This document shows positions 7,901 through 64,000 of a DNA stretch of 64,000 bases, one piece after another. Under the pieces are notes generated by a model. The model searched no databases and was not told where the DNA came from. It saw nothing but the letters and a program-made list of their open reading frames with translations. The translations under genes and the position numbers were made by a program. The stretch is taken from the NCBI GenBank assembly GCA_903862655.1, contig CAIOZA010000019.1:6960-70959 (forward strand), read 5' to 3'. Source of the stretch: an uncultured Ignavibacteria bacterium. GTDB taxonomy: Bacteria; Bacteroidota; Ignavibacteria; Kapaibacteriales; UBA2268. Position 1 is the stretch's first letter, and each line of letters opens with the position of its first letter.

Positions 7901-8135
7901 CATCAAGATTAATTCTGGATTTCCAAAAATATTCCCATCTCTGGAATTGCTTCCAACCCTTTTTGCCCTTATTTTCGGGAGCAGTCCAATATGTGTTGAA
8001 ATTATTTTTCATGTCAAAGAAATTTAGATTTTCTGTTGATTTGAATTCGATAGCAGGCTGGGCGAAAGATTGGTTTACCAAAAACAAAGGTAAAAAAATC
8101 ATTACAATCAAATATTTAAGACAAGAAGTATGCAT
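4923..8135 (-). CDS. Secreted BNR/Asp-box repeat beta-propeller protein (sortilin/GH74-like) with Cys-paired Ig-like repeats and a T9SS C-terminal sorting domain
   Basis: Signal peptide. Multiple S-x-D-x-G-x-(T/S)-W Asp-box repeats (DGGQSW, DGGKSW, DAGETW, DGGKTW, DGGTTW, DGGSLW). Two repeats with the pattern CEGDS..L......YQWSTG. C-terminal Por_Secre_tail-like segment ending ...GIYWIKIYINDQIIIRKLIKR. Confidence 0.7.
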   Translation of the reverse strand: MHTSCLKYLIVMIFLPLFLVNQSFAQPAIEFKSTENLNFFDMKNNFNTYWTAPENKGKKGWKQFQRWEYFWKSRINLDGSFPNGIELWNEYQNYQNKFNQLTQGNDKIWSQTGPFKNPSDGNNQGGIGRINVVKIKPNAAKEIWIGSAAGGVWQSKDYGQSWKVFPFTQILSMGISDIAFSESNPNVAYVATGDCDGTGTTYSTYSVGVLKTTDGGQSWATTSFSFGPGNGKIVSKVVVLPSNPDLVIACTNDGIYKSIDGGKSWRNKVVQSAYFRDIKIKRDDPNIILASTYNGNGNAAIFRSEDAGETWVQTKVLAGITRTCIDFAYGNTDLVYLLCATGSYFHSIQVSADGGKTWAIKSSLSGGTPNIMGSGQGTGNDKYYGQAWYDLALAVSPADDEVLYAGGINIWGSSDGGTTWRMTTHWYGGYSKPYVHADIHYLTFDLEDGYLLCGSDGGLDYATNPENKWINLNKGLSISQMYRVASAQTYPGFAYTGCQDNGTFRVKDGVWSQAYGGDGMDCVVNQLDYNKAIVSMQNGDFLRTVNGSSFGEVLNSSITQENGGWITPIVMNPINPNTIYTGYTNVWRSVDGGSLWKKLGSLAIGTLQRLAISPADTNTIYASNGSSIMVTYNNGGLWQAISNIPGSVQQIEVDPNNAKRIFIVIGGFSEGKKVYEYNGTSWKNLSGNMPNFPVNTIVFQKNSPDRLYVGTDIGVFYSDYSSGYWEPYGLGMPTVICSDLKIDYKGGKLICGTYGRGLWSIDLNTCNLPQPDIQAPSQMRICEGDSVILTALTDASVAWSTGETTKSIIVKTSGTYSFSIIGDGNCVVRSKAVILEKSVIPSLKISPIGKYPLCEGDSINLELSASLGFSSYQWSTGDSTRKIKVKLPGIYKVVTKTSTDCWAQYELEIKINPLPPKPIIDRLSSTELQSSFARTYQWYLNDTLLSSETKRNIIINTLGNYTVQITDSNSCPAKSDPIIITTDVNDPSFVTGISIHPNPTTGEATIAIANIGNSNFRYTVSDLLGIEILSSNGLINDQLFVLNLSEKPTGIYWIKIYINDQIIIRKLIKR

Positions 8136-11100: not shown

Positions 11101-11389
11101 TATCCTGATTGAAATAGTTAATATATTCGGTTCTTAAAGAATTTAAATCAGGTATCTGATTTGTTTTCCACATTCTTGGAGCTAATAGCCATTCCAATCT
11201 TTTAAATTGCTTAAAACCACTTCCTTTTGAAGGCTTTTTATCTTTCCAATAATTGTTGAAAACTAATTGCAATTCTTTAAAATCAAATTCCTTTTGTTGG
11301 TTATAATTTTGAAGCCAATTTTGGGCATTTAAAGAACTGGTCAAAAAGTTAAATATGATGAAAATAATTAAAATTGATGACTTATTCAT
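8165..11389 (-). CDS. Secreted BNR/Asp-box repeat beta-propeller protein with T9SS C-terminal domain (tandem paralogue of 4923-8135)
   Basis: Same architecture and length (1074 aa) as the neighbour: signal peptide, Asp-box repeats (DGGTSW, DAGQTW, DGGASW, DGGNSF, NAGSTW, SGGGTW), CFGDSVKL/CEGVGADL Ig-like repeats with YKWSNG/YKWSTG, and C-terminal ...GVYFVNIKSKFNSSINKIIKESN. Confidence 0.7.
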   Translation of the reverse strand: MNKSSILIIFIIFNFLTSSLNAQNWLQNYNQQKEFDFKELQLVFNNYWKDKKPSKGSGFKQFKRLEWLLAPRMWKTNQIPDLNSLRTEYINYFNQDKQSPRMLTNADWKIIGPTNKPSQTSGLPQPGIGRISCLAFHPTNNSIIYVGSATGGIWKTTDGGTSWASLPLTGVLSIGISDIAISPSNPNIIYASTGDAESSGFLGVNFSYSIGILKSTDAGQTWNTTSSSYQISQNVLINRLLISPTNANLVYVGSNKGFSKSSDGGASWLSITGDVCRDLEFKTDDPTNIYGTFISPNNVYSIRKYTESAGNLAIQLEINGAGRVNLATCKSQPKVLYALACSEWPDYNFHSVWKTTDGTNWLKVSDKSTSPNYLTYYADGSGTAAQGLYDLSIAVNPNSSDEVYIGGVNIWKSINGGKAFSPIAEWTGGFGLPWVHADIHWLAFNSSNVLFACTDGGINKSTNLGKNWTDISNGLQITQFYSLSSSEQNPNIITAGAQDNGTHKYDGTNWKNIMGGDGMETIIDKTNSNIIYASLYYGQINKSIDGGNSFTNIISSNRTQEEGAWVTPYIIHPTNSNILYVAMQNVWKTTNAGSTWVKISNFTETTPIKINAMAISATDPNFIYISKYNQIYKTSSGGGTWTSAGQTQDYITSIMVHPSSPSKFWVTLSGYSATDKILFYNGTKWDNLSAGLPNVPVNCIEYQKNSLDRLYIGTDVGVFTRDNSSSQWDSYNQGMPNVIVNDLKIINSTSKMLAATYGRGIWETKINDCNLAAPELIVTGQTKFCFGDSVKLESKDSYPTYKWSNGSTAKTIWVKASSKVNLTVTDLKNCSATSADINVTVTNPADYNIKLIGNNPFCEGVGADLQVNSFSYKYYKWSTGDTTKKITVLKPGTYTVVCTTIDGCVKPSTNSITLTSLPAPAKPTISQTNGILKSSTAVAYQWFKDGIILTGETNQSYSQKSNGKYQVEITDVNGCKSLSDEFIITTGIEAENFNNAVISPNPSKGLFNISLPPSHSKTIIEITNIFGQKVSIIELQEGVNEAILNLNEQSDGVYFVNIKSKFNSSINKIIKESN

Positions 11390-28120: not shown

Positions 28121-30955
28121 ATGAAAAAAACTATTCTACTTCTGGCATTTCTTTTTTGTTCTACGTTACTTTTTGGGATAGAGTTTAAAGTAAATATTTT
28201 AATGACTGATGGCAGTTCAAAATCATTTAAACTTTCTGATATTGATAATATCAAAATCCTCGCAGGAAAAGATAATTGCATGATGAAGATTTTCTACGAA
28301 CATATATTAACCGATAATTTCCTAATCAAAAATATCGATTCGATAAGATTTGATGTTTCTCAATCACAACTACTGATAATTAAACTGACGAACCAATTGA
28401 AGAGTTATAAAGTTGCTGACATTGATAGTCTCAATTTTTTTATTCCGGCTACTCCAATACCACAAATTACAAGTATAAATCCAAATTCAGGAAAAGTTGG
28501 AGATGAAATGACAATCACAGGCACAAATTTTGGAGCAATAAAAGATAGTAATTTCCTATCATTCAAGAATACAAATGCTTCTATCTATTCTTCCTGGACT
28601 GATACTGAGATTAAAGTAAAAGTTCCTGCAGGTACATCCACTGGTCCAGTTTCAGTTACTATTGGTGGAGTAAAGAGCAATGAATTAAATTTCACATTGA
28701 TACATTACATTACATCAATTTCTCCAGTTTCTGGGAGATATGGGGATATCGTGACTATTAAAGGAATGAGTTTTGGCTCAGCTCAGAATCGAAATCTTGT
28801 AGTTTTTAATGGCATTAACGCTAAAGATTATACTTTATGGACAGATACAATTATTAAGGTGAAAGTTCCAAATGGAGTTAAAACAGACAAATTGTATGTA
28901 GAGGTTGATAGTATAAAAAGTAATGGGATTCTTTACACAATTTTACATAGTTTGTCTAGTATCTCGCCAACAGCTTCAAGAATTGGAGACACTATATCAA
29001 TCTCCGGAATTTCATTTGGAACCAAAAGGGATTCAAGCTATATTAGTTTCAATGCATTAAATGTAAAAGATTATATTTCATGGAGCGATACATTAGTAAA
29101 AGTTAAAGTTCCAATTGGAACTTTAACAGGGAAAGTATCTCTCACTTTAAATATGATTAAAAGTAATGAGATTGTGTTCTCGGTTGTACCTCAGATAATC
29201 CAATTGTCACCTGATTCAGCTGGAATTTCTCAGAATATCAGCATAATTGGAAATGGTTTCGGAAAACCTCAAGGAATCGGGATTGTTTCCTTTTCAGGAG
29301 TAAATGCAAAAGATTACCTTATTTGGGACGACACAGAAATAAGAGTTACAGTGCCTGATGGAGCAAAAACAGGCAATGTGTCGGTAACAGCAGGTGGCAA
29401 TATCAGCAACGAATTGAAATTTACCATAAAACCATTCATTACATCTATTAACCCATCATTCGCCAAACTTGGTGAGCAAATCACAATTAGCGGGTCAAAC
29501 TTTGGGAACACACAAGATGCAAATTTTGTTTCATTTTCTAAAGCAAATGGAAGCAATTATCTAAGTTGGAGTGATACTGAAATTAAATTATTAATTCCAA
29601 GTGCTGCCAATAGTGGAAAAGTATCGGTAACAATCGGTAATGTAAAGAGCAATGAAGTAATTCTTTTGATTATTCCTGAGATCACTAATATTAGTCCAAC
29701 AGCTGAAAAAATAGGTGAACTCGTGACAATAACAGGTAGAGGGTTTAATGATGGAATTGGGACAAGTTTCGTATCATTTTCCGGTGCAAATGCAATAGAT
29801 TATCAAAGTTGGTCTAGTACATCAATTTCAGTTAGAGTTCCATCAGGCGCAAGAACAGGAAAAGTATCGGTCACATCCAGTAACCAAAAAAGCAATGAAG
29901 TTGACTTTTCTATATTGCCTTCAATTTCAAGCATCATGCCTGGCAATGGATTAGTAGGTGATATTATTTTAATTACCGGTGCTAGCTTTGGAACAGTACA
30001 AGGAACTAGTTATGTTTCTTTCAATGGATCCAATGTTACCAATTATCAAAGTTGGACAGAATCAGAAATAAGAGTTTTTGTTCCTCAAGGTGCTACCAGT
30101 GGTAAAGTATATGTAATGGTTGGATCTGTAAAAAGTAATGAAGTTGATTTCACCATGACACCACAGATATCAAATATAACTCCCGATAGATCAAATCTTG
30201 GTGGACAGATTACAATTTCCGGGGCTAATTTTGGAGCTAGCAGAGGATCTAATTTTGTTTCATTCAATACTTTAGCTGCAACATCATATCAGAGTTGGAG
30301 TAATACATCTATAGTTGTTACTATTCCCAATGCTGCAGTTTCTGGGAAAGTATCTGTCACAGTAAGCAATATTAAAAGTAATGAAGTTGATTTCACTATT
30401 ACATCAGTTTTGATTGGAAACCAAGAGTGGATGACAAGAAATTTAGATGTTAGCACTTACCGAAATGGCGATCAAATACCCGAATGTACTGATGCAACAG
30501 AGTGGGAAAATCTTACAACTGGTGCTTGGTGCTATTATGCTAATGAATCCTCAAATGGTACTGTATATGGTAAACTATACAACTGGTTTGCAGTTAATGA
30601 TTCACGAAACTTGGCACCTTCAGGCTGGCATGTAGCGACAGATGCTGAATTTTCTACTCTTAGTGCAACTCTTAATGGTGATGCTATTTCAGGTGGAAAG
30701 ATGAAAGAAACCGGCAATACCCATTGGGCAAGTCCAAATACTAATGCAACGAATGAAAGTGGATTTACTGCGTTAGGGGCTGGATACAGATCAAATGGAT
30801 TTGCTCGCATAAATGAGGTTCTTGTTCTTTGGTCTTCTACTCAAAATGATGCAACCACTGCTTGGGCTAGAAATTTTTCCTATAATACAGGAGCTTTAGC
30901 TAGGAATGCACAATGGAAACAGGTAGGATTTTCAGTTAGGTGTCTTAAGGATTAA
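28121..30955 (+). CDS. Secreted protein with eight tandem IPT/TIG domains and a C-terminal Fibrobacter-succinogenes-major-paralogous (FISUMP) domain
   Basis: Signal peptide. Eight ~85-aa repeats, each starting I(T/S)SI(N/S)P..G..G(D/E)..TI.G..FG and ending GKVSVT....KSNE(V/L).F. C-terminal ~170 aa reads GNQEWMTRNLDV..YRNGD...WCYY...GKLYNW.A......APSGWHV.TDAEF.TL....G......GGKMKETG..HW..PNT.ATN.SGFTALGAGYR...G........LWSST.........AR.F.Y......R....K..GFSVRCLKD, the FISUMP signature. Confidence 0.8.
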   Translation: MKKTILLLAFLFCSTLLFGIEFKVNILMTDGSSKSFKLSDIDNIKILAGKDNCMMKIFYEHILTDNFLIKNIDSIRFDVSQSQLLIIKLTNQLKSYKVADIDSLNFFIPATPIPQITSINPNSGKVGDEMTITGTNFGAIKDSNFLSFKNTNASIYSSWTDTEIKVKVPAGTSTGPVSVTIGGVKSNELNFTLIHYITSISPVSGRYGDIVTIKGMSFGSAQNRNLVVFNGINAKDYTLWTDTIIKVKVPNGVKTDKLYVEVDSIKSNGILYTILHSLSSISPTASRIGDTISISGISFGTKRDSSYISFNALNVKDYISWSDTLVKVKVPIGTLTGKVSLTLNMIKSNEIVFSVVPQIIQLSPDSAGISQNISIIGNGFGKPQGIGIVSFSGVNAKDYLIWDDTEIRVTVPDGAKTGNVSVTAGGNISNELKFTIKPFITSINPSFAKLGEQITISGSNFGNTQDANFVSFSKANGSNYLSWSDTEIKLLIPSAANSGKVSVTIGNVKSNEVILLIIPEITNISPTAEKIGELVTITGRGFNDGIGTSFVSFSGANAIDYQSWSSTSISVRVPSGARTGKVSVTSSNQKSNEVDFSILPSISSIMPGNGLVGDIILITGASFGTVQGTSYVSFNGSNVTNYQSWTESEIRVFVPQGATSGKVYVMVGSVKSNEVDFTMTPQISNITPDRSNLGGQITISGANFGASRGSNFVSFNTLAATSYQSWSNTSIVVTIPNAAVSGKVSVTVSNIKSNEVDFTITSVLIGNQEWMTRNLDVSTYRNGDQIPECTDATEWENLTTGAWCYYANESSNGTVYGKLYNWFAVNDSRNLAPSGWHVATDAEFSTLSATLNGDAISGGKMKETGNTHWASPNTNATNESGFTALGAGYRSNGFARINEVLVLWSSTQNDATTAWARNFSYNTGALARNAQWKQVGFSVRCLKD
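28442..30430 (+). repeat. Eight in-frame tandem ~255-bp coding repeats (IPT/TIG domain array) inside the 28121-30955 CDS
   Basis: Protein-level periodicity of ~85 aa with conserved anchor residues. The repeats are diverged at the DNA level, so this is not a CRISPR or satellite repeat. Confidence 0.6.
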
Positions 30956-36011: not shown

Positions 36012-37493
36012 TTAAATTTCAGGATATTTAGGATTATTTGAATGGAGAGGTGAATGATTCCTACAAATATAAGTATTTAAAACTGTTTTAATTGGAATTT
36101 TGACAAGCCGAAATGATCTTGTATTTATATTCATTCTAAGGTAAGTAAAATTTATAACCGACAAAACGAGTCCTATAGGAAGCCAAAAGTTAGGTGAACT
36201 AAAGTTATTGCCAGAAATAAAATTTATAATAATTTGTACGATTATTATATAATATAATAATCTGATTAACCTCTGCTCATATTCACTGAAGTAGCTCAAT
36301 ATTTTTTCATTTTTGGTTAATTTGATCGTTACAACAATTAAGCTAGTAAAAAAAGAAAACAGGAATATAACTCCAATTGTGCCTAATTCCGCCAGAACAG
36401 TAGAAAGAGTAAAATCAGAGAATACTAATTCTGGGTGAATTTTGTTGCAAGAAGTTAAACCCAATCCGATACCTTGAATTGGATAATGCTTCCAGATATC
36501 AATAGATTGTTGATAGGTATTTAATCTTGATCCAAATGACTCACCAAAAACCTGTTTATCGTCATTCCCGGCATTAGTAGCAAAATGAAAGATACCTTCT
36601 ATTCTCTGCTGAAATAATTCGATTACACTTACTCCTACATATTCTGAAAAAAGCAGATCAGCTAGAGTAATAATTACAACAAATGAAAGAATTAATGTTG
36701 AGTATCTAATGATATGTTGTTTTTTTTGAACTACTAGCATACCAGCAAAAATAAGAATTACTCCTACGAATCCTGTCATTGAAAAAGCAAGTAACATCCC
36801 AATAGACGCAAAGACAAGCATAGTAAAAATAATTATTTTACTTTTAAAAAAGTGTTTTTGTTTATTAATAATCGGGACTATTAAAAAAGCCAGCATGTAT
36901 GTATTGAAAGTACCTAAAGCTGATGGTTCAGAGAATATTGAGGTAGCTCTAAAAAAATCACCATAATGAAGACTCAATTGATTGAAAGAATCTACTCCTT
37001 CTTCTGCCGCTCTCGACATGAAACTAACATTATTGTAAACTATCCAAGCCAGGGGTAAATCCAAAGCTCTTGCAATAATCTGGTAAATCCCAAAAATATT
37101 AATAAGTAAACCTAGAATAAGCCATGTTTTAATTACCTTATCCCATTTTGATATATCAATTGGCAAAAAGATGCAAATAATTCCGAATAAAAAGAGTTCA
37201 ATAAAGTGAACAAATGATTTAAAAAATTGGAAAATCATATCGGTCTCGCCATAATATATGGCTGTAGTTGAGGATATAATAATGGAAACAAATAGTCCGA
37301 ATAATATTAAATGAAAGATATTATAGGAATATTTAACTTGAATACCATCCCAAATCAGTTTTTTAAGAGCATATATATAAAAGGCCAGAAGTGCAAAATC
37401 GAGAATAGTTACTCCATATCCACTTATCGAGAAGAATTGAAAGCCTGTAAAAAAGAACCCTATAAATATTATTTGGAGAAGAAATATTTGCAT
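36012..37493 (-). CDS. O-antigen ligase / Wzy-like polytopic membrane protein
   Basis: 493 aa with about 12 predicted TM segments and a large extracytoplasmic loop (...RAAEEGVDSFNQLSLHYGDFFRATSIFSEPSALGTF...) reminiscent of the Wzy_C / O-antigen ligase domain. Confidence 0.55.
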   Translation of the reverse strand: MQIFLLQIIFIGFFFTGFQFFSISGYGVTILDFALLAFYIYALKKLIWDGIQVKYSYNIFHLILFGLFVSIIISSTTAIYYGETDMIFQFFKSFVHFIELFLFGIICIFLPIDISKWDKVIKTWLILGLLINIFGIYQIIARALDLPLAWIVYNNVSFMSRAAEEGVDSFNQLSLHYGDFFRATSIFSEPSALGTFNTYMLAFLIVPIINKQKHFFKSKIIIFTMLVFASIGMLLAFSMTGFVGVILIFAGMLVVQKKQHIIRYSTLILSFVVIITLADLLFSEYVGVSVIELFQQRIEGIFHFATNAGNDDKQVFGESFGSRLNTYQQSIDIWKHYPIQGIGLGLTSCNKIHPELVFSDFTLSTVLAELGTIGVIFLFSFFTSLIVVTIKLTKNEKILSYFSEYEQRLIRLLYYIIIVQIIINFISGNNFSSPNFWLPIGLVLSVINFTYLRMNINTRSFRLVKIPIKTVLNTYICRNHSPLHSNNPKYPEI

Positions 37494-44863: not shown

Positions 44864-46783
44864 ATGACGATGAAGATAATATCTAAATTGAATCTATCGA
44901 TTATTCTCTTTCTAACAGCCATTACAATATACATAATGACTGCCGCACCGGATCTCATGTTTACAGATTCAGGTGAACTCGCCGGTGTATGCGTAACCTT
45001 GGGTATAGCTCACCCAACAGGTTATCCACTATTCGCCATTATCGGACATTTATTTTCTCTTATTCCTATGGGTTTGAGCAAAATATATCAGCTCAATTTA
45101 ATGGCTTCGTTCTTCACGGCACTATCTTCGGTAGTTTTTTTTCAAACATTACTTATTGTTTTTGAATTAGTCAACAAAAAGAAAAATCAGCAGAAAACTA
45201 AGAATAAACAAAGTCAGGTAAATGAATCAAACCTTTTAGAAAATAGAAATATTCTGCTCATTTCTTTTTTCACATCTTTAATATATTCTTTTGCCACAAC
45301 TGTCTGGCAACAAGCTAATGCTATTGAAGTTTATTCATTACAAGCTATGATGTTTAATCTTGTAATCTGGTCAATTTTAAAATCATCCTCAGCCAAAGAA
45401 AATCAATTCAAATTTTATATTTTTACTGAATTTTTATTGGGGTTAAGTTTTACAAACCACATGCAAACAGTCCTGCTGATTCCGGGAGTCCTATATTTAT
45501 ACTTATTCGGTATCGGAGATTCACATAAATTTGATAAGTTAAAATTTAAAGAAATCCTTTGGTTATTTATCCCATTTGTTATTGGATTGAGTCTTATATT
45601 GTATCTTCCTCTGAGAAGTATGTCTATGCCTGATTTTAACTGGGGCTTTGTTTCAAGAGGCTGGAGTAAGTTCATATATCATGCATCTGGCAAGCAATAT
45701 CAGATTTGGATGTTCTCTGATAGTGCCTCCATATCAACAAATCTTGGTAAATTTTTCTCCCTACTTCCTTACCAGCTTGGCTGGATTGGGCTAGTTCCTT
45801 TTTTGCTCGGAATTTACTTTTTATTCAAGCAGAACAGAAAGTTACTTTTCTTTCTTCTAATTTTATTATTCACTTGTCTATCCTATAGTGTTAATTATAG
45901 TATTCATGATATAGATTCATATTTTCTTCTTGCTTTTATTTCGATTATCCTATTAACTGGGACAGGATTATTTTTTGTAATTTCTAAGTATCCAAAATTA
46001 GTTGCAGCAATTGTAATAATTCCAATAATTTCGCTAATACAAAATTTCGATTCAAATGATAATTCTAAAAATTATCTAGTTCCAGAATATAGCAGAATTC
46101 TTGGAGATAACCTTGAACCAAATGCTATTATTATTTCAGCTCAATGGGATTACTGGTGTTCTGCTTTTTGGTACAAGCAGAAAGTTGAAGGTTACCGACC
46201 TGATGTTGTTCTTCTTGAAAAGGAATTGTTACGTAGAACATGGTATCTAGAGCAATTCAAGAAATGGTACCCAGCAACAGCTAAAACAGTTGAGAATGAA
46301 GTAAATTTGTATCTGGGACAACTTGAATTATTCGAATCTGAGAAGGAGTATAATCCTGTCCTGATTCAGCAGTATTATGTAGGACTAATAAATGCTTTGA
46401 TAGACAAGAACTTTGGTAAAAGACCAATTTATGTTACCATTGATGTGGTAGAGAATCCTACAGATGCAGACATTGCTTCAAAATATCAAAAAATCCCACA
46501 GGGTTTTGCATTTCGACTCGAGAAAGATAATAAAATTTACCAACCTAATCTCGACAAAATTGATATTTCTAAATTCCTTGAATTCAAAAAAGACAGAAAT
46601 AATCATCTTGTAGAGGGCATTTTGAGTGTTGCATCATTAAACGTTACAAACATTGGTCGCTATGCCCAAGCAACGAATAATACAGTAACAGCACGTAAGT
46701 CCTATGAAATGGCTCTGAAGATTGATCGGTCGAATCAAAATGCGCAAATGGGGTTGCAGCAGTTATCGAATATCAGGCAATAG
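44864..46783 (+). CDS. DUF2723 / TMEM260-like polytopic membrane protein (GT-C-fold glycosyltransferase-like) with C-terminal TPR region
   Basis: N-terminal loop APDLMFTDSGELAGVCVTLGIAHPTGYPLFAI is the hallmark of the DUF2723 family (acidic DxGE loop after TM1, then GIAHPxGYPL). About 11 TM helices, then a soluble ~240-aa C-terminal domain. Confidence 0.7.
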   Translation: MTMKIISKLNLSIILFLTAITIYIMTAAPDLMFTDSGELAGVCVTLGIAHPTGYPLFAIIGHLFSLIPMGLSKIYQLNLMASFFTALSSVVFFQTLLIVFELVNKKKNQQKTKNKQSQVNESNLLENRNILLISFFTSLIYSFATTVWQQANAIEVYSLQAMMFNLVIWSILKSSSAKENQFKFYIFTEFLLGLSFTNHMQTVLLIPGVLYLYLFGIGDSHKFDKLKFKEILWLFIPFVIGLSLILYLPLRSMSMPDFNWGFVSRGWSKFIYHASGKQYQIWMFSDSASISTNLGKFFSLLPYQLGWIGLVPFLLGIYFLFKQNRKLLFFLLILLFTCLSYSVNYSIHDIDSYFLLAFISIILLTGTGLFFVISKYPKLVAAIVIIPIISLIQNFDSNDNSKNYLVPEYSRILGDNLEPNAIIISAQWDYWCSAFWYKQKVEGYRPDVVLLEKELLRRTWYLEQFKKWYPATAKTVENEVNLYLGQLELFESEKEYNPVLIQQYYVGLINALIDKNFGKRPIYVTIDVVENPTDADIASKYQKIPQGFAFRLEKDNKIYQPNLDKIDISKFLEFKKDRNNHLVEGILSVASLNVTNIGRYAQATNNTVTARKSYEMALKIDRSNQNAQMGLQQLSNIRQ

Positions 46784-52063: not shown

Positions 52064-53668
52064 GTGAAATTTCGCCAAAATCATATTTCTCAATACTTAT
52101 TAATCATTCTTACCACATCCATCATACCTTTGATGGTACTTTTTTTCTATCCGGATAAGATCGTAAATCTTTTCTATAATGATGCATTCTACTATTTTAC
52201 AATAGCGACTAATTATCTTCATAAAGGTGTTTTCTCATTTGATGGAATAAATCCCACCAATGGATTCCATCCTCTTTGGCAAATAATTACTATAGTGCTA
52301 TTTAAAATAGCATCAAATAGTGACTTTAAGATTATTCTTACATTGTTGGTTTGTATTGTTCTTACATCATCAGCAAATATTCTTTTTTTCAGTTCTGCTT
52401 ATAAAATAACTAAGTCTAAACTTTTAGCATTTATAACAATCATTCCCGGATATTTTTATTTAATTTTTGGACTTGCAATTGGTAAGCACTATTCAATCAT
52501 ATCTCCTGTAAATGGCATGGAGACTTCTATTTCGTTATTTTTATTTTCTTTGCTCCTGTACTTTTTAATAAGATGTTCCGAAGGAAAGCAGTTTTATAGA
52601 TTTAAATATTACACTATTTCTTTGCTAGTTTCATTGCTTTTTCTGAGTAGACTGGATGAAATATTTATTATTTACACATTACTTTTGTATGTCTTCTTCA
52701 GTTCGGATAAATCGAATAGATTATTGAATTCGATTAAGTTTTTAGTCTTTCCTATTCTAATGATATCCGGATATTTAATTTATAATCAATTATCAACTGG
52801 TATGCTCTTACCTGTTAGCGGATTGCAGAAATCAGGGTTTTCATTTGATAATGTTGTGCATATTATCCGTGGACTATTCTTAGGACGTTCTTTTAATTAT
52901 TTCTGGGGAGAGCATTTGTATTCAAGAATTCTACCCATTGTTTATGTATTAATTGCTACTGGCTTTTTCCTAGTATTATTTTTTAAAAAGTCATTTAACA
53001 AAAATAATTCTCTTATTGCTCCACTTGCATACATTGCGATGGCTTCAATATTAAAATTAACCTATCATATATTCTTTACTAATCTCTGGGATCAGGGACA
53101 ATGGTACTACAATATTGACATAATAACTAGTAATATTATTGTTGCTTATTTTATCATTACAAGGTATCCATCAATTTTGAAAATAAAGTACATAAGCATT
53201 TACTCAGCTATTTTGATATTATGTGTGTTATTTTGGAATGCATTCGCGAATTTGACAACTGAAACCAGAAATGAAATGTTATGGAGAAATAGAGAAAAAA
53301 TCAAAAATGAAATCATCAAAATAGATAAATTCCCAAAAATAATTGAAATGGATGACGGGATAGTTACTTATGCCTTGGGATTTCGGGCATTATCTGGTTT
53401 TGGGTTATGTATGGATAAAGAAGCATTCAAAGCAAAAAATTCTGGAAAGTTATTTGACCTAGCATATAAAAGAGGATATAGGTACATAGCGTCGTTAAAT
53501 TATTTTAAAAATCCTGATAATATTCCAAATACATTGAATAATTATAAGGATTTTGTTTCAATCCCATTTTTTGCATTAGAAAAACAAGACCTTGATTTTT
53601 GGCAATTTCAGTCAATCTACTCTAACAATTTAACAGGATTTGTACTAATAAAATTTGAAAAAAAATAG
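52064..53668 (+). CDS. Hypothetical polytopic membrane protein; candidate GT-C-fold glycosyltransferase
   Basis: GTG start. About 11 TM helices in residues 1-390, with a short acidic/aromatic first external loop (NLFYNDAFYYFTIA) right after TM1. Followed by a ~145-aa soluble C-terminal domain. This is the general layout of GT-C enzymes. No specific family recognised by eye. Confidence 0.5.
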   Translation: MKFRQNHISQYLLIILTTSIIPLMVLFFYPDKIVNLFYNDAFYYFTIATNYLHKGVFSFDGINPTNGFHPLWQIITIVLFKIASNSDFKIILTLLVCIVLTSSANILFFSSAYKITKSKLLAFITIIPGYFYLIFGLAIGKHYSIISPVNGMETSISLFLFSLLLYFLIRCSEGKQFYRFKYYTISLLVSLLFLSRLDEIFIIYTLLLYVFFSSDKSNRLLNSIKFLVFPILMISGYLIYNQLSTGMLLPVSGLQKSGFSFDNVVHIIRGLFLGRSFNYFWGEHLYSRILPIVYVLIATGFFLVLFFKKSFNKNNSLIAPLAYIAMASILKLTYHIFFTNLWDQGQWYYNIDIITSNIIVAYFIITRYPSILKIKYISIYSAILILCVLFWNAFANLTTETRNEMLWRNREKIKNEIIKIDKFPKIIEMDDGIVTYALGFRALSGFGLCMDKEAFKAKNSGKLFDLAYKRGYRYIASLNYFKNPDNIPNTLNNYKDFVSIPFFALEKQDLDFWQFQSIYSNNLTGFVLIKFEKK

Positions 53669-57183: not shown

Positions 57184-57214
57184 TTCCAGTTTAAATATAT
57201 TTTTTATTTATAAG

Positions 57215-57240
57215 GTGGCTTCAAATGCCACCTTTTTTTG
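57215..57240 (+). terminator. Rho-independent terminator of the sdhCAB operon
   Basis: GGTGGC-TTCAAAT-GCCACC followed by TTTTTTTG. Confidence 0.7.
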
Positions 57241-57266: not shown

Positions 57267-58172
57267 TTAGCTACTAAATACACCTTCTTTTCCTGATTTT
57301 ATTTTAGGCAAAAGGATCCCACCGATTATTAATATTAAACCAAAGAATGTTGACTCTAGAATACTTTCTCCTATTACCAAACTGATAAAAAATAAAGATA
57401 AAAAAGGAGACAAATAGACGAAAGCACTAACCTTTGCCGTATTTTCTGATAAACTTAATGCTCTAAGCCAAAAGACAAATGTTAGCCCCATCTCAAACAG
57501 GCCGATATAAAATGAACCAATTATTCCCGAAAAACTAAAATTTTGTAAGAATAAATCCCCATTAATTAAAACTAAAATTAAACAAAAAATAAAACCAAAA
57601 AAAAAGCTCAGAAATAGTTTAAGAGTGCCATCCTGTTTCATTTTTAAATTAAGTATCCAGAATGTTGACCAGATTAGAGAACTAGAAACAGCGAGAATTG
57701 TTCCTAATAAATTATTAAATTTTAATGCAAATAAATCTCCTTTTGTTCCAATTAATACAACTCCGAAAAAACTTAAAATCAGACCAATAAGAGTAAGCGC
57801 ATTTATCTTTTGTTTTAAAAATACTGCAGAGAATATCACTATGCTCATTATCCATGTGTAATTTAGAGTCAGTGCTTCCTGAGCAGGTAATAGTTCGTAA
57901 GCTCTAAATAACACGAGATAATAGAGAAATGGGTTCAGAAACCCAATCAACGCAAATACTAAAATATCCTTGAAATTCAATTCTTTGAATAACTTAATCT
58001 TACCTGTAAAGATAAGAATAAAAAGTAAAGCAACAGATGCTATAAAAGAAGATTGGAGAAGAAGATGAGTTGAATTTAATTCATTAAGTGAGAGCTTAAA
58101 AGCTGTAGCTACTGTTGACCATAAACAGACTGAGATCAATGCATAAACATAAGCTTTATTGCTGTTATTCAT
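57267..58172 (-). CDS. EamA/DMT-superfamily transporter, last gene of the polyprenyl-P-arabinose operon
   Basis: 301 aa, 10 TM helices, duplicated EamA halves. Starts 7 nt after the stop of the dprE2-like gene on the same strand. Confidence 0.8.
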   Translation of the reverse strand: MNNSNKAYVYALISVCLWSTVATAFKLSLNELNSTHLLLQSSFIASVALLFILIFTGKIKLFKELNFKDILVFALIGFLNPFLYYLVLFRAYELLPAQEALTLNYTWIMSIVIFSAVFLKQKINALTLIGLILSFFGVVLIGTKGDLFALKFNNLLGTILAVSSSLIWSTFWILNLKMKQDGTLKLFLSFFFGFIFCLILVLINGDLFLQNFSFSGIIGSFYIGLFEMGLTFVFWLRALSLSENTAKVSAFVYLSPFLSLFFISLVIGESILESTFFGLILIIGGILLPKIKSGKEGVFSS

Positions 58173-58179
58173 ACTTAAC

Positions 58180-58914
58180 CTAGAGATTCATTTTTTTAAA
58201 TATTGCTTCAGGAATATGCATAACTATAAACATTACTATTCTCCAAAAACCAGGAACGTAAGCTATGTCCTTTTTTTTCTCTATAGCATTAAAAATATGT
58301 TTACCGACAATTTCCGATGATGAAAATAATGGATTCTTTGGGATATCAGCTGTCATTGGAGAATCAACAAGACCAGGTTTAATTGTAATAATTGTTACTC
58401 CAGTTCCGGACAAACGATTTCTTAATCCTTGTAGGAAAATTGATAATCCCCCTTTTGCTGAGCCATATATATAATTACTCTTTCGTCCTCTATCCCCTGC
58501 TACAGATGTTATAACAGCTAGAATTCCTGAATTTCTCTTTTCAAAATATTCAGCAAATATTGAACTCAAAGTAGCAGCTGAAATAAAATTTATACTTAAT
58601 TGCTTTTGTATTTCGTTTGGCTTATTTAATATATCCTCTTGATTAGGTAATGTCCCGTATGCAATAAACGCTACATCGAAATTTCCAAAATCCTGTATAA
58701 TTTTTTCAAAAAGTTGTTCCTGCATATTAATATTTGAAATCTCCCATTCAAAAATTGAAGGAAGTACACCAGTCGCAACAAAAATATCATTCTTAACAGA
58801 TTCAAGTCTGTTAAAATTAATATCAACCAGTAAAACTTCAAGGTCTTTTTTAGCAAACTGCTTTATCGTTGCGACTGCGATTGCTGAGGTTCCGCCTATA
58901 ACTACTAACTTCAT
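58180..58914 (-). CDS. dprE2: DprE2 homologue: short-chain dehydrogenase/reductase, decaprenylphospho-2'-keto-D-erythro-pentofuranose 2'-reductase family
   Basis: Collinear match to mycobacterial DprE2 (Rv3791) over the full length: VVIGGTSAIAVAT vs LLLGGTSEIGLAI; FDVAFIAYGTLPN vs VDVAIVAFGLLGD; YGSAKGGLSIF vs YGSTKAGLDGF; C-terminus WRIVMFIVMHIPEAIFKK vs FRYVMMVLRHIPRSIFRK. Confidence 0.8.
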   Translation of the reverse strand: MKLVVIGGTSAIAVATIKQFAKKDLEVLLVDINFNRLESVKNDIFVATGVLPSIFEWEISNINMQEQLFEKIIQDFGNFDVAFIAYGTLPNQEDILNKPNEIQKQLSINFISAATLSSIFAEYFEKRNSGILAVITSVAGDRGRKSNYIYGSAKGGLSIFLQGLRNRLSGTGVTIITIKPGLVDSPMTADIPKNPLFSSSEIVGKHIFNAIEKKKDIAYVPGFWRIVMFIVMHIPEAIFKKMNL

Positions 58915-58927
58915 AGTTTAACTTTCA

Positions 58928-60229
58928 TTAATTATTTACTCTTCTCCAAAAAGAAGATGAAAATTTTGGATCAATATATTTTGAGAATTCTTTTACTTCG
59001 GGATAGAAGTGCATAAAATCAGATCCTGACATTCTGGAATCCTTTGCTGGATAGATCACTCCCCTATGTTCCTTAACAATGTCATCTAATGAAGTTAGAA
59101 AATCAAGAGTTCGTTTACCAGTCATCCTGAAATCGATAGCCAGAGTAATACCAGGTCTGGGGAATGATAACATCCCAGGTGATTTAATGTTACCGAATGT
59201 TTTTAAAACTGTCAGGAAAGAAGATAAGCCAGAATGATTAATCCTGGTGAGAATCTCTTTGAGTGCTTCTTTACCATTATTAAATGGTAAAACAAACTGA
59301 TATTGAATGAAACCATTTTTACCATAAGCATTATTCCATTTTCCTACAGCATCTAATGGATAGAAGAATGGCTCGTAATGAATTAATGAATTTAATTTTT
59401 TGTCAAATTGTTTTTGATAATACAGAACATTAAATAGATTAACACTGAGCTCATTTATGAAACTGGATTTGAATGGAAAATCAATTGAATGTTTAGTGTT
59501 GGCATACTTTGGTCCTGATTTTGCAAAATTCCCACTGGAATAAATACCTCTTCCTGATCTGGTTCCGGTTGATGTGCAATCAATCCATGAGACAGTAAAA
59601 TCATTTGTTAGATTGGCAAAATCATTAATTTCAAAGAAATCATTCAAACAATCAAATTTAACAAATTCAGCATCAATCATGCTGGAGTCTATTCTAAATA
59701 ATTTAATTTCAGCCCAGGTGATGATTCCCGTTAATCCAAGTCCACCTATTGTTGCTCTGAATAATTCCTGATTCTCGGAGTTGCTGCAAATTAATCTTTC
59801 ATTAGTAGATCTTAGCAATTCGAAGCAATTTACATGGCAACCGAAGGTACCCATTTTATGATGGTTTTTTCCATGTACATCATTAGCAATTGCTCCTCCT
59901 AATGTTACGAATTTTGTGCCGGGAGTAACAGCAAGAAAAAATCCTTTAGGTACAATTAATTTCAATATTTCATCAAGTGATACTCCTGCTTCAGCTCTTA
60001 GAACACCTTTATCCCAATCAACTGAGATAAATTTGTTCAAACCAGAACAATCGACTAATGTCCCATTTGAATTAAGACAGCTATCACCATAACTACGGCC
60101 TAAACCGAAGGGCAATACATTTCCGATTACGGTTGCTAAATCAGGAGCTTCGTTTATCCAACTATAATTAATGACTTGTTGATATTCAGGGGTCGGATAC
60201 TTACCCCATGATTCATAAATACTTTTCAT
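58928..60229 (-). CDS. dprE1: DprE1 homologue: FAD-dependent decaprenylphospho-beta-D-ribofuranose 2'-oxidase family
   Basis: [11 protein letters not shown] vs Mtb DprE1 [34 protein letters not shown] vs [37 protein letters not shown] vs FWATVGGNGLTGII; C-terminal [25 protein letters not shown] vs (R)[24 protein letters not shown]. Confidence 0.85.
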   Translation of the reverse strand: [433 protein letters not shown]

Positions 60230-60232
60230 AGA

Positions 60233-61690
60233 TTATAAACTCAAAAACAAAAATACAATCATTAGAAGACCCATAAGATAACTCATTTTGTCCTTTGCAG
60301 TGAATACAATAGGATCATTATGCATTTCGCCACGGAAAGTCAGAAGCCACATTCTAGATATCCAGAGTAAAAGAACAAGACCGACAGGTAAAAGTAACTC
60401 AGGTTTCGAGTATAATCTTGTAATCTCAGGACTAAAAATGTATAACATGAAAACCAGAGTTGAGAGATAGCCACTTGTAATTCCCAATGGGAGTAAAAAG
60501 CTCAAATCATTGGTTTGATAACCTCGGCCATCAGTTCTTTGTTCACTGATTTCCTTTAGCGAATAAAGCTCCTGATATCGTTTTATAATTGCCAAACTTA
60601 AAAACAGAAAAATAGAAAAAGCAATCAACCATTTTGAAATTCCTACATTGGAAGTAATTCCGCCTGCTATCAATCTTATTGTATAAAGCAGGGAGAGTAC
60701 CATTATATCGATCAGAATTATTTTTTTTAAGCGAAATGAATATAAGGTTGTTAGCAGGAAATAAATCAGTAGTAAAAGTGAAAAATTATTAGGTAAAAAA
60801 TTAAGAGATAAAAACCAACCTATTATGAATAATACTTTGGCCACAATAAAAACAAGAATTGGATTAAGATTTCCTGAAGCTAATGGCCGACTTTTCTTTA
60901 TAATATTCTTTCTGTCTGATTCAAGATCCACCAAATCATTAATAATATAGACAAAAGATGCAATGAATGAAAAGCTTACAAATCCAATAACATTATTAAA
61001 AATAGAATTGAAATTCTTTATATCATGAGCAAGCAAGAAAGGCAAAAAAATTAGAATATTTTTTATCCACTGATATACTCTAAGCTCCTTGAAAATCTGA
61101 GATAATGAATTTTGCTTTTCATCTGAGTAAATAAAATCAACATTGCCACTTACTTTAATTACTTTATTTTTTAATGATGGAGATGGATTTACCAGATAAC
61201 TTTTTCTACAGCTTTCAAATACTGGCAAATCAGCCGTGCTATCTCCAATATAATCATATCCTTTATGTCCAAATAATTCTTCAAGTTTTCTAGCTTTATT
61301 GTTTGCTCTGTTATTATGATCTCTTTTACTAAAAATGACCTCGTCGAATATTGGTAGATACTCTGATACAGATTTAGCAATATTCTCAGTTGTAGCCGTA
61401 CTTAGAACAATTTTTCTGCCGATTGCCTTATTTTTATTTAATAAGCTTATAACATCAGAATTATAAGGGAATAAGGAAGCATTTAGTTTGGAATGATCAG
61501 TTACAAAATTCTTTAAATGATTCTTTCCTTTTAGAATAAGGAAAGGAATAACAAAGATATTGAATATATTAGATTTAATACATAAAATAGTGGATTCAAA
61601 TATACTATCAATTTTTATAAGAGAGCCATCAAGATCTGTTACCAATGGTATAGATATATCATGACTATTTGTATTATTTATCTGATTCAT
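60233..61690 (-). CDS. Fusion protein: N-terminal HAD-IB-like phosphatase domain plus C-terminal UbiA-family polyprenyl-phosphate 5-phosphoribosyltransferase (DPPR synthase-like)
   Basis: N-terminus has HAD motif I LVTDLDGSL, motif II LSTAT, motif III K...KARKLEELFG and motif IV GDSTADLPV. After a linker, an 8-9 TM UbiA domain with NDLVDLESDRKN (NDxxDxxxD) and a second D-rich region (HNDPIVFTAKDK). Start and stop overlap the neighbouring genes. Confidence 0.8.
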   Translation of the reverse strand: MNQINNTNSHDISIPLVTDLDGSLIKIDSIFESTILCIKSNIFNIFVIPFLILKGKNHLKNFVTDHSKLNASLFPYNSDVISLLNKNKAIGRKIVLSTATTENIAKSVSEYLPIFDEVIFSKRDHNNRANNKARKLEELFGHKGYDYIGDSTADLPVFESCRKSYLVNPSPSLKNKVIKVSGNVDFIYSDEKQNSLSQIFKELRVYQWIKNILIFLPFLLAHDIKNFNSIFNNVIGFVSFSFIASFVYIINDLVDLESDRKNIIKKSRPLASGNLNPILVFIVAKVLFIIGWFLSLNFLPNNFSLLLLIYFLLTTLYSFRLKKIILIDIMVLSLLYTIRLIAGGITSNVGISKWLIAFSIFLFLSLAIIKRYQELYSLKEISEQRTDGRGYQTNDLSFLLPLGITSGYLSTLVFMLYIFSPEITRLYSKPELLLPVGLVLLLWISRMWLLTFRGEMHNDPIVFTAKDKMSYLMGLLMIVFLFLSL

Positions 61691-62823
61691 ATGGTAGTTG
61701 CTATTTTTTTGTCAAATATCTGTAAAGCTACACCAATTACTTGATCCATATTGTAATATTTATAATCTGCAAGTCTCCCAGCAAAAATAACACTTCCGTT
61801 TAATTTGTCAATTTCATTTAAATACTGTTTAAATATTATTTCATTTTCAGGTTTAGGTATTGGATAATAAGGATCATTTTGACCAGGTATGTGGGCCAAA
61901 GAAAACTCCTTTGCTATTACTGTCTTACTAATATCTTTAATTTGGTTTCTATAGAAATGTTTAAACTCGGTGATTCTTGTAAAATCATAGTTATTAGGGT
62001 AATTTACCTGAGATACTTCCTGAAAACTTTCTAGGTTGAATGATTCTAGTTCAAATCTAAGACTTCTATATGGAAGTTGACCATGCACATAGTCAAAAAA
62101 GGAATCAATTGGACCAGTAAAAATAAGCTTATTAAACTTAATATTATTTATATCTGATTTAAATTCAGTGTTGAGCCTAAGTTCAATATTAGGATGATTG
62201 AGCAATTTTTCAAATATTGAAGAATATCCTTCTTTTGGTAATCCCTGATAAATATCCTGAAAGTATCTGTCATCTCGACTAATATTGACAGGAATTCTTG
62301 AAGTTACTGAATGATCCAGTTCTTCTGGTTTGAATTCCCATTGCTTTAAAGTATATCCCAAGAAGATATTTTTATATATGTAATCGGCGAGATAGCTTAA
62401 TTCAGAATTTTGGGAATCCTTAAGCTTTAGAATTGGAATCTTTGTGCCAAAACCATAGGTATTAATTAAAATTTCTTCTAATTTTGAAGCATAATGATTT
62501 GGGAAAACCATGTAAAGTGAGTTCAAATTAAACGGTACAGGAATCTTTAAACCCTCCACAGCTGCCAGGACCTTGTGAAAGTATAATTCCCAGTCAGTAA
62601 ATTGAGATAGATATTCCCAGACTTTGTGATTACTAGTATGAAATATATGAGGCCCATATTTATGAATTAGAATTCCATTAACATCTTTGTAATCGTAGCA
62701 ATTACCACCAAAGTGCTCCCTTTTGTCAATAACAAGTACTTTTTTATTAAGCTGATTTGCTATTCGCTCTGCAAGGACTGAACCGGCCAATCCCGCCCCT
62801 ACTATTAGATAATCATAGTTCAT
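61687..62823 (-). CDS. glf: UDP-galactopyranose mutase
   Basis: MNYDYLIVGAGLAGSVLAERIA...KVLVIDKREHFGGNCYD...IHKYGPHIFHT...YEYNGR-type UGM motifs throughout; 378 aa. Confidence 0.95.
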   Translation of the reverse strand: MNYDYLIVGAGLAGSVLAERIANQLNKKVLVIDKREHFGGNCYDYKDVNGILIHKYGPHIFHTSNHKVWEYLSQFTDWELYFHKVLAAVEGLKIPVPFNLNSLYMVFPNHYASKLEEILINTYGFGTKIPILKLKDSQNSELSYLADYIYKNIFLGYTLKQWEFKPEELDHSVTSRIPVNISRDDRYFQDIYQGLPKEGYSSIFEKLLNHPNIELRLNTEFKSDINNIKFNKLIFTGPIDSFFDYVHGQLPYRSLRFELESFNLESFQEVSQVNYPNNYDFTRITEFKHFYRNQIKDISKTVIAKEFSLAHIPGQNDPYYPIPKPENEIIFKQYLNEIDKLNGSVIFAGRLADYKYYNMDQVIGVALQIFDKKIATTI

Positions 62824-64000
62824 TTTCTAATATAACCTTTAATTTCTTCAACTGACGTTATTTTAAAAAGAAAAATAAATCCTCCAAATAATATAAAAGA
62901 CGCAATAGAAGAAATTATCTCATGAATTTTGAAATAATGATTCAATCCATATCCTCCCAAGCACGAGATGGCTGATATTGCAATACCTTTGAGCAAAGTC
63001 AAAAGAAAAGTAATATTGATTTCGTTTTTGATAATCCTAACCAACCCAAGGAATACCATAAATTCGCTAACAACTGTAGACCAAGCAGCACCAACAGCTC
63101 CATACTTAGGAATCAGAATGAAATTCAGTATGATATTGACTATTGCTCCTGCTCCAATTGCATACATTACTATTTTTTCTTTTTTCCAGGCTACAAGTGG
63201 TGGATAATAGGCTGTATTCATATACATAATTAATACAGTAAGCATCAGAACTTGCAGAACTATTATTGAATCTGTATAATTGCTACCAAAAGCAAATGTA
63301 ATGAAAAAAGATGAAAAAGTAAAAAACAGAAAAGAAAGAAAAGTACCAACATAAAATATAGCCTTAGAATAATTTCTTAAGGCATTTCTTTTTTCATCAA
63401 TAGATTGAGCCCTGGAAACATGCGGAAAAAATGCTAAATTTAATATATAAGATGGAGCAATTACTAATCCAACAAACCTAAATGCTGCAGCATAGATGCC
63501 GGTTTCAGCATCAGACTTCATAAAACCAAGCATTATAATATTCAATGAATTATAAATAGTAATGAAAAAGCTTGAAAACATTATTGGAATTGATGAGGTA
63601 AGAAGTTCTTTCATCATTGACTTATCGATATATAACCTGAGTTTTCCATATATTTTGTTGTATAGAGCCAGCATCCAGATAGCATTGAGTAATGTCGAGA
63701 TTACAGTAATAATCATAGCTGTGACAACATCTGAAGCAGTTTTAACAAGGAAAAGCACACCTATCAAATTCAAAGAGCTTGTCAGAACCTGTCGGATAGC
63801 TAGGATTCCCATTTTTTCGGTACCCTGATAAACCCAATCCATCATTATAGCCTGTGAAAATAAATTCACACCGGAAATAATTATCACAAGTTTTACTTCA
63901 AATGGTTTATCAATTAGCACGGCAAAGATAACCATAGCTACACAGGAGAAGATTGCGAGGATTAATCTATAAGTTGTTATCTGATCGGCGTATTTTTTTA
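62820..64000 (-). CDS. wzx: Wzx-like polysaccharide flippase (MOP superfamily), partial; the N-terminus lies beyond the window
   Basis: Polytopic membrane protein with the MOP/PST flippase arrangement. The reading frame stays open to the window edge (upstream residues ...KKYADQITTYRLILAIFSCVAMV...). Its stop overlaps the glf start (ATGA). Confidence 0.7.
   Translation of the reverse strand, partial: KKYADQITTYRLILAIFSCVAMVIFAVLIDKPFEVKLVIIISGVNLFSQAIMMDWVYQGTEKMGILAIRQVLTSSLNLIGVLFLVKTASDVVTAMIITVISTLLNAIWMLALYNKIYGKLRLYIDKSMMKELLTSSIPIMFSSFFITIYNSLNIIMLGFMKSDAETGIYAAAFRFVGLVIAPSYILNLAFFPHVSRAQSIDEKRNALRNYSKAIFYVGTFLSFLFFTFSSFFITFAFGSNYTDSIIVLQVLMLTVLIMYMNTAYYPPLVAWKKEKIVMYAIGAGAIVNIILNFILIPKYGAVGAAWSTVVSEFMVFLGLVRIIKNEINITFLLTLLKGIAISAISCLGGYGLNHYFKIHEIISSIASFILFGGFIFLFKITSVEEIKGYIRK

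Follow-up and report, generated by a model that had tools for sequence, protein, structure and literature searches.

The locus considered here, a six-gene operon at positions 57267 to 64000 of a 64,000-nucleotide stretch of contig CAIOZA010000019.1 from an uncultured Ignavibacteria bacterium (the whole stretch is referred to below as the window), raises the question of whether its homologs of mycobacterial arabinose-donor enzymes make D-arabinofuranose (Araf) and, if so, what kind of glycan receives it. A preliminary description had proposed a complete actinobacterial-type pathway to a lipid-linked Araf donor, cotranscribed with genes for UDP-galactopyranose mutase and a Wzx flippase and feeding an arabinogalactan-like polymer. 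In our analysis the gene identities and the donor pathway held up, whereas neither the evolutionary framing nor the polymeric product was supported. From domain content and catalytic motifs, we consider it likely that the operon supplies donor synthesis and export, one half of an extracytoplasmic pentofuranose glycosylation system of the three-component type, with Araf as its sugar, and the likely function is decoration of a glycan with Araf in the periplasm.

All six genes lie on the minus strand, in the order wzx, glf, HAD::UbiA fusion, dprE1-like, dprE2-like, and eamA, and Pfam, NCBIfam, and PDB searches bore out these identities; the packing is exactly as had been described. ATGA overlaps join wzx to glf (62820 to 62823) and glf to the fusion gene (61687 to 61690); the remaining gaps are 3 nt between the fusion and oxidase genes (a junction reading TAA-TCT-ATG), 13 nt between the oxidase and reductase genes, and 7 nt between the reductase gene and eamA. 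Such packing, with two overlaps and no gap beyond 13 nt, indicates translational coupling, which counts in favor of the reading of the operon given above. Promoter-like sites inside the cluster were not enriched (30 found versus 35.6 expected from shuffles). A G+C-rich, terminator-like hairpin with a T-run on the plus strand (57212 to 57234; no strand assigned), between the convergent ends of sdhB and eamA, delimits the operon region on its 3' side. At the other end, the wzx reading frame (62820 to 64000, minus strand) is open to base 63998, and the N terminus of its product, a Wzx-like flippase of the multidrug/oligosaccharidyl-lipid/polysaccharide (MOP) superfamily (Pfam Polysacc_synt, 3.7e-21), is cut: the Pfam match covers profile positions 97 to 273, leaving the N-terminal part of the profile uncovered, and the window protein matches, at 91% identity, the 392 residues at the C terminus of an ortholog of 469 aa in the related locus L018. 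About 77 Wzx residues therefore lie outside the window and the operon runs off its edge, as had been predicted. At 31.5% G+C, the operon is near the window as a whole (33.9%), and its composition thus gives no hint of recent acquisition.

The center of the operon is the fusion gene (60233 to 61690, minus strand), which encodes a 485-aa protein with an N-terminal HAD phosphatase domain (residues ~1 to 190; 61121 to 61690, minus strand; Pfam HAD, 2e-4; TIGR01490, 3e-6) and a C-terminal UbiA-fold domain (residues ~193 to 485 plus the stop codon; 60233 to 61114, minus strand; NF006088, PDB 8j8j). The whole protein scores 539.6 bits against the HAD::UbiA family NF006088/PRK08238, above the cutoff of 351. 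Its UbiA half reaches 115 to 139 bits on three models of decaprenyl-phosphate phosphoribosyltransferase (DPPR synthase), compared with at most 48 bits for other prenyltransferases and at most 25 bits for UbiA/COQ2-type models (~23 for true UbiA), and its PDB matches are to Rv3806c only (8j8j, 1.1e-28). Motif I (D19-x-D21) and motif IV (GDSTAD) of the HAD domain are present, as are the UbiA-domain motifs N251-D-x-x-D-x-x-x-D259 and K-R371-x-x-E. The same arrangement is found in ORF15 of Citrobacter youngae, in which an N-terminal HAD phosphoribose phosphatase (PRP) is fused to a UbiA-fold polyprenyl-phosphate phosphoribosyltransferase and the protein converts phosphoribosyl pyrophosphate (PRPP) to lipid-phospho-ribofuranose (PMC11127046). 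The PRP nucleophile of ORF15 is D18, and mutagenesis of ORF15 showed the importance of its DxD, NDxxDxxxD, and RxxE motifs, with residues matching D19, N251, D252, D255, and D259 of the window protein needed for its activity (PMC11127046); this match to essential residues supports the assignment of the window operon to the same class of system.

The two genes that follow encode clear full-length homologs of the mycobacterial enzymes that turn the lipid-linked ribose into arabinose. For the 433-aa DprE1-like flavin adenine dinucleotide (FAD) oxidase (58928 to 60229, minus strand), the best NCBIfam match is the DprE1 model NF053785 (346.7 bits, 2.6e-103), compared with 55 bits for the runner-up family and no more than 55 bits for alditol or lactone oxidase families. 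Its residues 38 to 421 align with the DprE1 structures of Mycobacterium smegmatis and Mycobacterium tuberculosis (E value of 1e-69 in the PDB search), and the motifs HGKNHH and AKDSR are kept; the His and Lys of the former and the Lys of the latter are catalytic residues of DprE1. Residues ~365 to 372 read GITLAIDF, with Ala at the position of the mycobacterial Cys that is the covalent target of benzothiazinones. Ala at this position is as in naturally benzothiazinone-insensitive enzymes, and by its sequence the window enzyme is predicted to be insensitive as well. The 244-aa DprE2-like short-chain dehydrogenase/reductase (SDR; 58180 to 58914, minus strand) matches the DprE2 model NF053786 at 174.4 bits (3.3e-51), below the equivalog cutoff of 250. 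Its top NCBIfam match is an unnamed family, PRK07102 (254 bits; cutoff, 267), and ordinary SDR families reach at most 104 bits. DprE2 is its only PDB match below 1e-10, over the full length (2.4e-28), and its GGTSxI and YxxxK motifs are present. Glf (61687 to 62823, minus strand; Pfam GLF, 1.7e-71), the UDP-galactopyranose mutase that makes UDP-galactofuranose (UDP-Galf), scores 434.8 bits on TIGR00031, above the equivalog cutoff of 303.75. The profile searches suggested in the preliminary description accordingly place the three core proteins nearest DprE1, DprE2, and Rv3806c, with Glf passing its model, so the outcome that would have undone it, affiliation with unrelated oxidase, SDR, or quinone prenyltransferase families, was not found. 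The three core proteins nonetheless fall outside the curated equivalog range of their mycobacterial counterparts (346.7 versus 500 bits for DprE1, 174.4 versus 250 for DprE2, and 115 to 139 versus 207 to 474 for DPPR synthase).

In the mechanism that we propose, the UbiA domain would move ribose-5-phosphate from PRPP onto polyprenyl phosphate, presumably undecaprenyl phosphate, and the fused HAD domain, a predicted PRP acting as a polyprenyl-phospho-ribose-5-phosphate 5'-phosphatase, would strip the 5'-phosphate. The DprE1-like flavoenzyme would then use FAD to oxidize the 2'-OH, and the DprE2-like SDR would reduce the ketone with inversion, giving polyprenyl-phospho-D-Araf at the cytoplasmic face. 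The earlier statement that every enzymatic step to a lipid-linked Araf donor is encoded here is fair, because the fused HAD domain supplies the 5'-dephosphorylation, a step that had gone unmentioned. An operon-encoded membrane transporter, most likely the EamA protein, may flip the donor, by analogy with ArnE/F-type flippases of the drug/metabolite transporter (DMT) superfamily, and a transferase with the glycosyltransferase C (GT-C) fold, encoded at the operon head in relatives and thus expected just past the window edge, would transfer Araf in the periplasm to an acceptor glycan. The presence of Glf implies that galactofuranose (Galf) is part of the acceptor or of a related glycan; the enzyme would provide UDP-Galf for assembly of the acceptor in the cytoplasm, and the Wzx-like protein would flip that lipid-linked glycan. 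In this scheme, the homologies, the catalytic motifs, the order of the genes, and the GT-C fold are observed, and the chemistry, the lipid carrier, the cargo of each transporter, and the acceptor are inferred.

The gene order is conserved well beyond this one genome. The six-gene order and its tight spacing recur in independent metagenome contigs, at 72 to 93% amino acid identity in loci L018 to L020 and ~54% in L021, and the arrangement is therefore conserved rather than a product of chance. Sequence upstream of wzx was read from the loci of these relatives, not from the source genome. Their full operon (L018 to L021) comprises genes for an ~520-aa membrane protein, a GH57 protein (with a BE_C domain), Wzx, Glf, the fusion protein, DprE1, DprE2, and EamA, with 1-nt or overlapping spacing and with TPR and DUF3467 genes upstream; from this we infer that GT-C and GH57 genes also precede wzx in the window's own genome, beyond the edge. 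Among 17 more distant loci, taken from species-representative genomes in which the best match has 50% identity, HAD::UbiA, DprE1, and DprE2 are directly consecutive in 13; L014 has HAD::UbiA and DprE1 only, and the remaining three are short or truncated. In four of the distant loci (L001, L002, L007, and L011), wzx and glf lie upstream of the fusion gene.

Some of these loci showed further features. On five kapaibacterial loci (L005, L006, L010, L012, and L016), dprE2 is followed by a gene for a separate 246-aa HAD hydrolase and then by mnmA, in the place of eamA. A metagenome-assembled genome of Ferruginibacter (L013, 10001 to 16495) carries HAD::UbiA followed by a GT87 GT-C protein, a methyltransferase, a GT2 protein, and a PMT_2 GT-C protein, with no DprE1 or DprE2; this locus probably represents, within Bacteroidota, a form of the system of the ribofuranose type. 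Contigs labeled "uncultured Hyphomicrobiales," including L001 (12145 to 13137), encode proteins with sorting domains of the type IX secretion system (T9SS), and their closest matches are genes of Kapaibacteria and the Fibrobacterota-Chlorobiota-Bacteroidota (FCB) group. Because of these sorting domains, the labels look wrong.

Which protein would use the donor was addressed by a survey of the upstream region for GT-C arabinosyltransferases, carried out on the relatives. A gene for a GT-C-fold protein does head the operon, and an arabinosyltransferase could not be told from other GT-C enzymes. The family has no Pfam match, is ~520 to 545 aa long, and has an invariant N-terminal DD; its members are encoded at L018 4231 to 5745, L019 4165 to 5745, L021 3167 to 4726, and L022 8001 to 9635. 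An AlphaFold2 model of the operon-head protein has a mean predicted local distance difference test score (pLDDT) of 92.5, and its top 30 PDB matches in Foldseek are all GT-C enzymes, among them STT3/PglB, AftB, ArnT, AftA, ALG9, Pmt4, and EmbA/B. Foldseek leaves AftB unseparated from oligosaccharyltransferase and ArnT, with E values within ~10-fold and TM-scores of ~0.5.

A second GT-C-fold membrane protein is encoded in the window itself (52064 to 53668, plus strand; 534 aa, no Pfam or NCBIfam match). Its AlphaFold2 model (pLDDT of 90.2) has AftB as the top Foldseek match (9dlh, 3e-5), followed by DPY19, AglB, and ArnT; hhalign relates it to the operon-head family at 75% probability, and it is also distant kin of PMT_2/GT39 proteins. 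Its family carries an invariant N-terminal signature, D..FYY / NGFHPLW. In relatives, the homolog of this gene lies immediately upstream of sdhCAB and not with the Araf operon. The protein was therefore set aside as the transferase of the system, and by its modeled fold it might use the donor, but its gene lacks a genetic link to the operon. Elsewhere in the window, a TMEM260-like/DUF2723 GT-C protein (44864 to 46783, plus strand; Pfam, 1.6e-37) and a Wzy_C/O-antigen-ligase-like protein with 11 transmembrane (TM) segments, ~20 kb from the operon (36012 to 37493, minus strand), are encoded. A tblastn search with the GT-C and Wzy candidates of the window found no co-located homologs in the related loci.

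The last operon gene (57267 to 58172, minus strand; Pfam EamA, 1.4e-34) encodes a 10-TM, two-domain EamA transporter of the DMT superfamily and is kept after dprE2 in L018 to L021. On a Vibrio plasmid, a 122-aa EamA-family gene stands directly 3' of the HAD::UbiA gene. Since EamA belongs to the DMT superfamily, as do ArnE/F, and since an EamA-family gene follows the Vibrio fusion gene, we favor EamA by analogy as the candidate polyprenyl-phospho-Araf flippase, the most likely of the operon's transporters.

Several observations weigh against the reading of the operon as half of an Araf-specific three-component system. The scores of the core proteins below equivalog cutoffs mean that the same substrate and product as those of the mycobacterial enzymes are not guaranteed. 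The window itself contains no operon GT-C gene, and in L022 the GT-C/GH57 pair occurs without adjacent donor-pathway genes and is followed there by a PMT_2 GT-C gene. The similarity of the window EamA to the small Vibrio EamA is not significant by BLASTP, with only the Pfam family in common, and EamA is restricted to close relatives, while the distant loci keep only Wzx beside the pathway; the donor flippase could therefore be a MOP (Wzx-like) protein. (A small flippase gene was also sought in the 515-nt gap between DprE1 and DprE2 in L002, and none was found.) The operon has no Galf transferase or initiating transferase, and the organism is known here from its genes alone.

Given those scores, one alternative is that the pathway ends at or diverts to another polyprenyl-phospho-pentofuranose (ribofuranose or the 2-keto intermediate), or that the oxidase and reductase act on another lipid-linked sugar, so that Araf is not the product. 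The module does serve several sugars, since HAD::UbiA occurs without DprE1/2 beside GT-C genes in the Ferruginibacter locus and with an unrelated epimerase for xylofuranose in C. youngae O2 (PMC11127046), and none of the three core proteins reaches its equivalog cutoff. Against this, C2' epimerization of polyprenyl-phospho-ribose is the only characterized activity of a DprE1/DprE2 pair, the DprE1- and DprE2-like alignments are full length with catalytic residues conserved, and DprE1/E2 homologs were found specifically with Araf-containing glycans (PMC11127046). We regard a non-Araf product as unlikely.

About equally improbable, in our judgment, is the view that an actinobacterial-style pathway feeds an arabinogalactan-like polymer of D-arabinan and galactan in a Gram-negative cell. 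The mycobacterial trio of donor-enzyme families and Glf do stand together in one operon, and the models of both GT-C proteins match AftB and AftA, although among other GT-C enzymes and without AftB being set apart from oligosaccharyltransferase or ArnT. The likeness to the mycobacterial pathway (Rv3806c, Rv3807c, DprE1 [Rv3790], DprE2 [Rv3791], Rv3789, and Emb/Aft) extends to homologous transferase, oxidase, and reductase enzymes and to the route from PRPP through lipid-phospho-ribose-5-phosphate and lipid-phospho-ribose to lipid-phospho-Araf. It ends at the phosphatase, which in the window is a fused HAD domain rather than the PAP2 protein Rv3807c; with all six operon genes assigned, no PAP2-type phosphatase or GtrA-like Rv3789 is found among them. 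The term "actinobacterial-type" is thus not supported, since the synthase is a HAD::UbiA fusion, the architecture known from side-chain systems of Gram-negative bacteria, as in C. youngae ORF15, and not a pair of separate proteins like Rv3806c and Rv3807c (PMC11127046). The carrier here is presumably undecaprenyl rather than decaprenyl phosphate, and the window oxidase has Ala in place of the benzothiazinone-target Cys. Neither an Emb/Aft set nor arabinan or galactan polymerization genes are present in the window operon. The full operon of the relatives likewise has no initiating transferase, no Galf transferase, no polymerase, and no GlfT-like or Emb/Aft-family Pfam matches, and it contains one GT-C candidate. 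The claim of an arabinogalactan-like polymer thus has no specific support, and a single GT-C candidate fits side-chain or terminal Araf decoration better than a polymer.

A misreading of generic metabolism, with UbiA as a 4-hydroxybenzoate or quinone prenyltransferase and the FAD oxidase and SDR as unrelated redox enzymes, is suggested by source annotations of homologs ("4-hydroxybenzoate polyprenyltransferase" [JGI] and "FAD/FMN-containing dehydrogenase") and is highly improbable in view of the scores given above (UbiA/COQ2-type, at most 25 bits versus 115 to 139 for DPPR synthase and 540 for the fusion family; alditol/lactone oxidases, at most 55 versus 347 for DprE1), the exclusive PDB matches of the UbiA half to Rv3806c, and the synteny of all three genes with glf and wzx.

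The closest precedents for a side-chain system are the three-component pentofuranose glycosylation systems described, as widespread in bacteria, by Kelly, Duong, Nothof, Lowary, and Whitfield (PNAS 2024; PMC11127046). In these, a small transporter flips the donor, a periplasmic GT-C enzyme uses it, and auxiliary epimerases alter the sugar; the prototype is ORF15-ORF14-ORF12 of C. youngae O1/O2, and Araf versions with DprE1/E2 homologs occur in Stenotrophomonas maltophilia and Rathayibacter (PMC11127046). The window operon shares with them the fusion of an N-terminal HAD domain to UbiA, with the same domain order and catalytic motifs, the DprE1/E2-type auxiliary epimerase, a membrane transporter gene in the same operon, and, in relatives, a GT-C-fold transferase in the operon. 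The orthologous operons accordingly contain candidates for all three components as well as the epimerase. The window operon departs from the described systems in several respects: in place of a 4-TM EmrE/ArnE-like or GtrA-like transporter it encodes a full-length EamA protein with 10 TM segments; the GT-C family of the relatives is unannotated, with no Pfam match; glf, wzx-like, and (in relatives) GH57 genes are added and the operon lies outside an O-antigen cluster; and the host belongs to the FCB group, a lineage unnamed in that study.

Other systems resemble the operon in part. Pilin arabinosylation in Pseudomonas aeruginosa Pa5196/PA7 (PsPA7_6245-6251 and TfpW; bioRxiv 10.1101/2020.04.19.049825) likewise involves a Gram-negative lipid-linked D-Araf donor, homologs of DPPR synthase, DprE1, and DprE2, and a periplasmic GT-C-like user; it differs in its separate phosphatase (6245), its GtrA-like 6247, and the placement of TfpW in the pilin locus, whereas the window operon has no pilin context. 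The ArnE/ArnF-ArnT lipid A system also combines an undecaprenyl-phospho-pentose donor, flipping by DMT-superfamily proteins, and a GT-C user, and both GT-C models have ArnT as one of their structural matches, but the sugar of the lipid A system is a pyranose, 4-amino-4-deoxy-L-arabinose, its donor is made by ArnC (GT2, from a UDP-sugar), and ArnE/F are small, half-size proteins. Within the FCB group, a plasmid of the cultured Cytophagales bacterium Chondrinema litorale (NZ_CP111066.1; L027, 8019 to 13884) carries genes for DPPR synthase, an FAD oxidoreductase, and an SDR consecutively, with acyltransferase and GT39 genes. Here too the donor trio stands in a row with GT-C genes alongside (annotated, uncharacterized); unlike the window operon, the synthase is an unfused 295-aa protein with no HAD domain, there are several GT39/DUF2723 GT-C proteins and acyltransferases, and glf, wzx, and eamA are absent. 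C. litorale would be a tractable organism in which to test an arabinose-donor-like cluster. Finally, Wzx/Wzy O-antigen or exopolysaccharide clusters differ in that, of the set sought besides a flippase (initiating phosphoglycosyltransferase, Leloir glycosyltransferases, Wzy polymerase, and chain-length regulator), nothing accompanies the Wzx-like gene in the window operon or in the full versions of the relatives.

The distribution of the proteins does not bear out the view that the pathway is essentially confined to Corynebacteriales. The fusion protein has >2000 homologs at E values of ≤1e-20 among the matches listed, with source names that include Kapabacteria, Ignavibacteriae, Bacteroidota, FCB group, Ferruginibacter, Gammaproteobacteria, and Legionella, and 81 plasmids, from hosts such as Rhizobium, Vibrio, Burkholderia, roseobacters, and Granulicella, carry full-length copies. 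When the DprE1-like protein served as the query in an exhaustive search, 1654 cluster representatives (50% identity) were returned at E values of ≤1e-30, and the best 150 of these 1654 clusters score >300 bits, compared with 230 to 238 bits for mycobacterial DprE1; at least 150 clusters are therefore closer than the mycobacterial enzyme. To these are added the Cytophagales plasmid and the description of such systems as widespread by Kelly et al. The phage collection yielded one weak partial match only. Seven DprE1-like proteins (P0248, P0291, P0352, P0370, P0378, P0379, and P0392) are 660 to 725 aa long, a length that suggests natural fusions with another domain, possibly a reductase. In the literature library searched, we found no report of a DprE1/DprE2 pathway in Bacteroidota or the FCB group, nor of D-Araf glycans there. 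Most likely, then, the operon represents an already known class of system in a lineage new to it, rather than a curiosity acquired from mycobacteria.

As for surface biology elsewhere in the window, the description of the genome as T9SS bearing is supported at the level of cargo: two ~1070-aa Sortilin/BNR-repeat proteins (4923 to 8135 and 8165 to 11389, both minus strand) end in T9SS C-terminal sorting domains. Together with the labels of related loci, such sorting domains are the basis on which the analysis placed the host in the FCB group. A 944-aa protein (28121 to 30955, plus strand) has eight TIG domains and a Fibrobacter "Fib_succ_major" domain. The Sortilin/BNR-repeat and TIG proteins are probably secreted or located at the surface.

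What is new here is the 10-TM EamA partner, the unannotated GT-C family, the coupling to glf, wzx, and GH57, and the FCB-group host; the gain is incremental, because the type of system was already defined in 2024. A more far-reaching possibility, which we put forward tentatively and with less than even confidence, is that the eight-gene operon would build an undescribed surface glycoconjugate containing D-Araf and Galf, by means of a transferase family and a flippase type new to three-component systems; this would be the first D-Araf glycan outside Actinomycetota and Pseudomonadota, possibly serving as an anchor or decoration of T9SS cargo. Automatic annotation masks such systems, with homologs labeled "4-hydroxybenzoate polyprenyltransferase," "FAD/FMN-containing dehydrogenase," or "hypothetical protein." If our interpretation is true, the unannotated GT-C family would be a candidate arabinofuranosyltransferase, and DprE1 variants naturally lacking the benzothiazinone-target cysteine would be on offer. 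D-Arabinofuranose would then be no mycobacterial specialty and would also come from uncultured bacteria of the FCB group (Kapaibacteria/Ignavibacteria-like and Bacteroidota), widening the environmental sources of D-arabinan-type epitopes and of substrates for D-arabinan-degrading enzymes.

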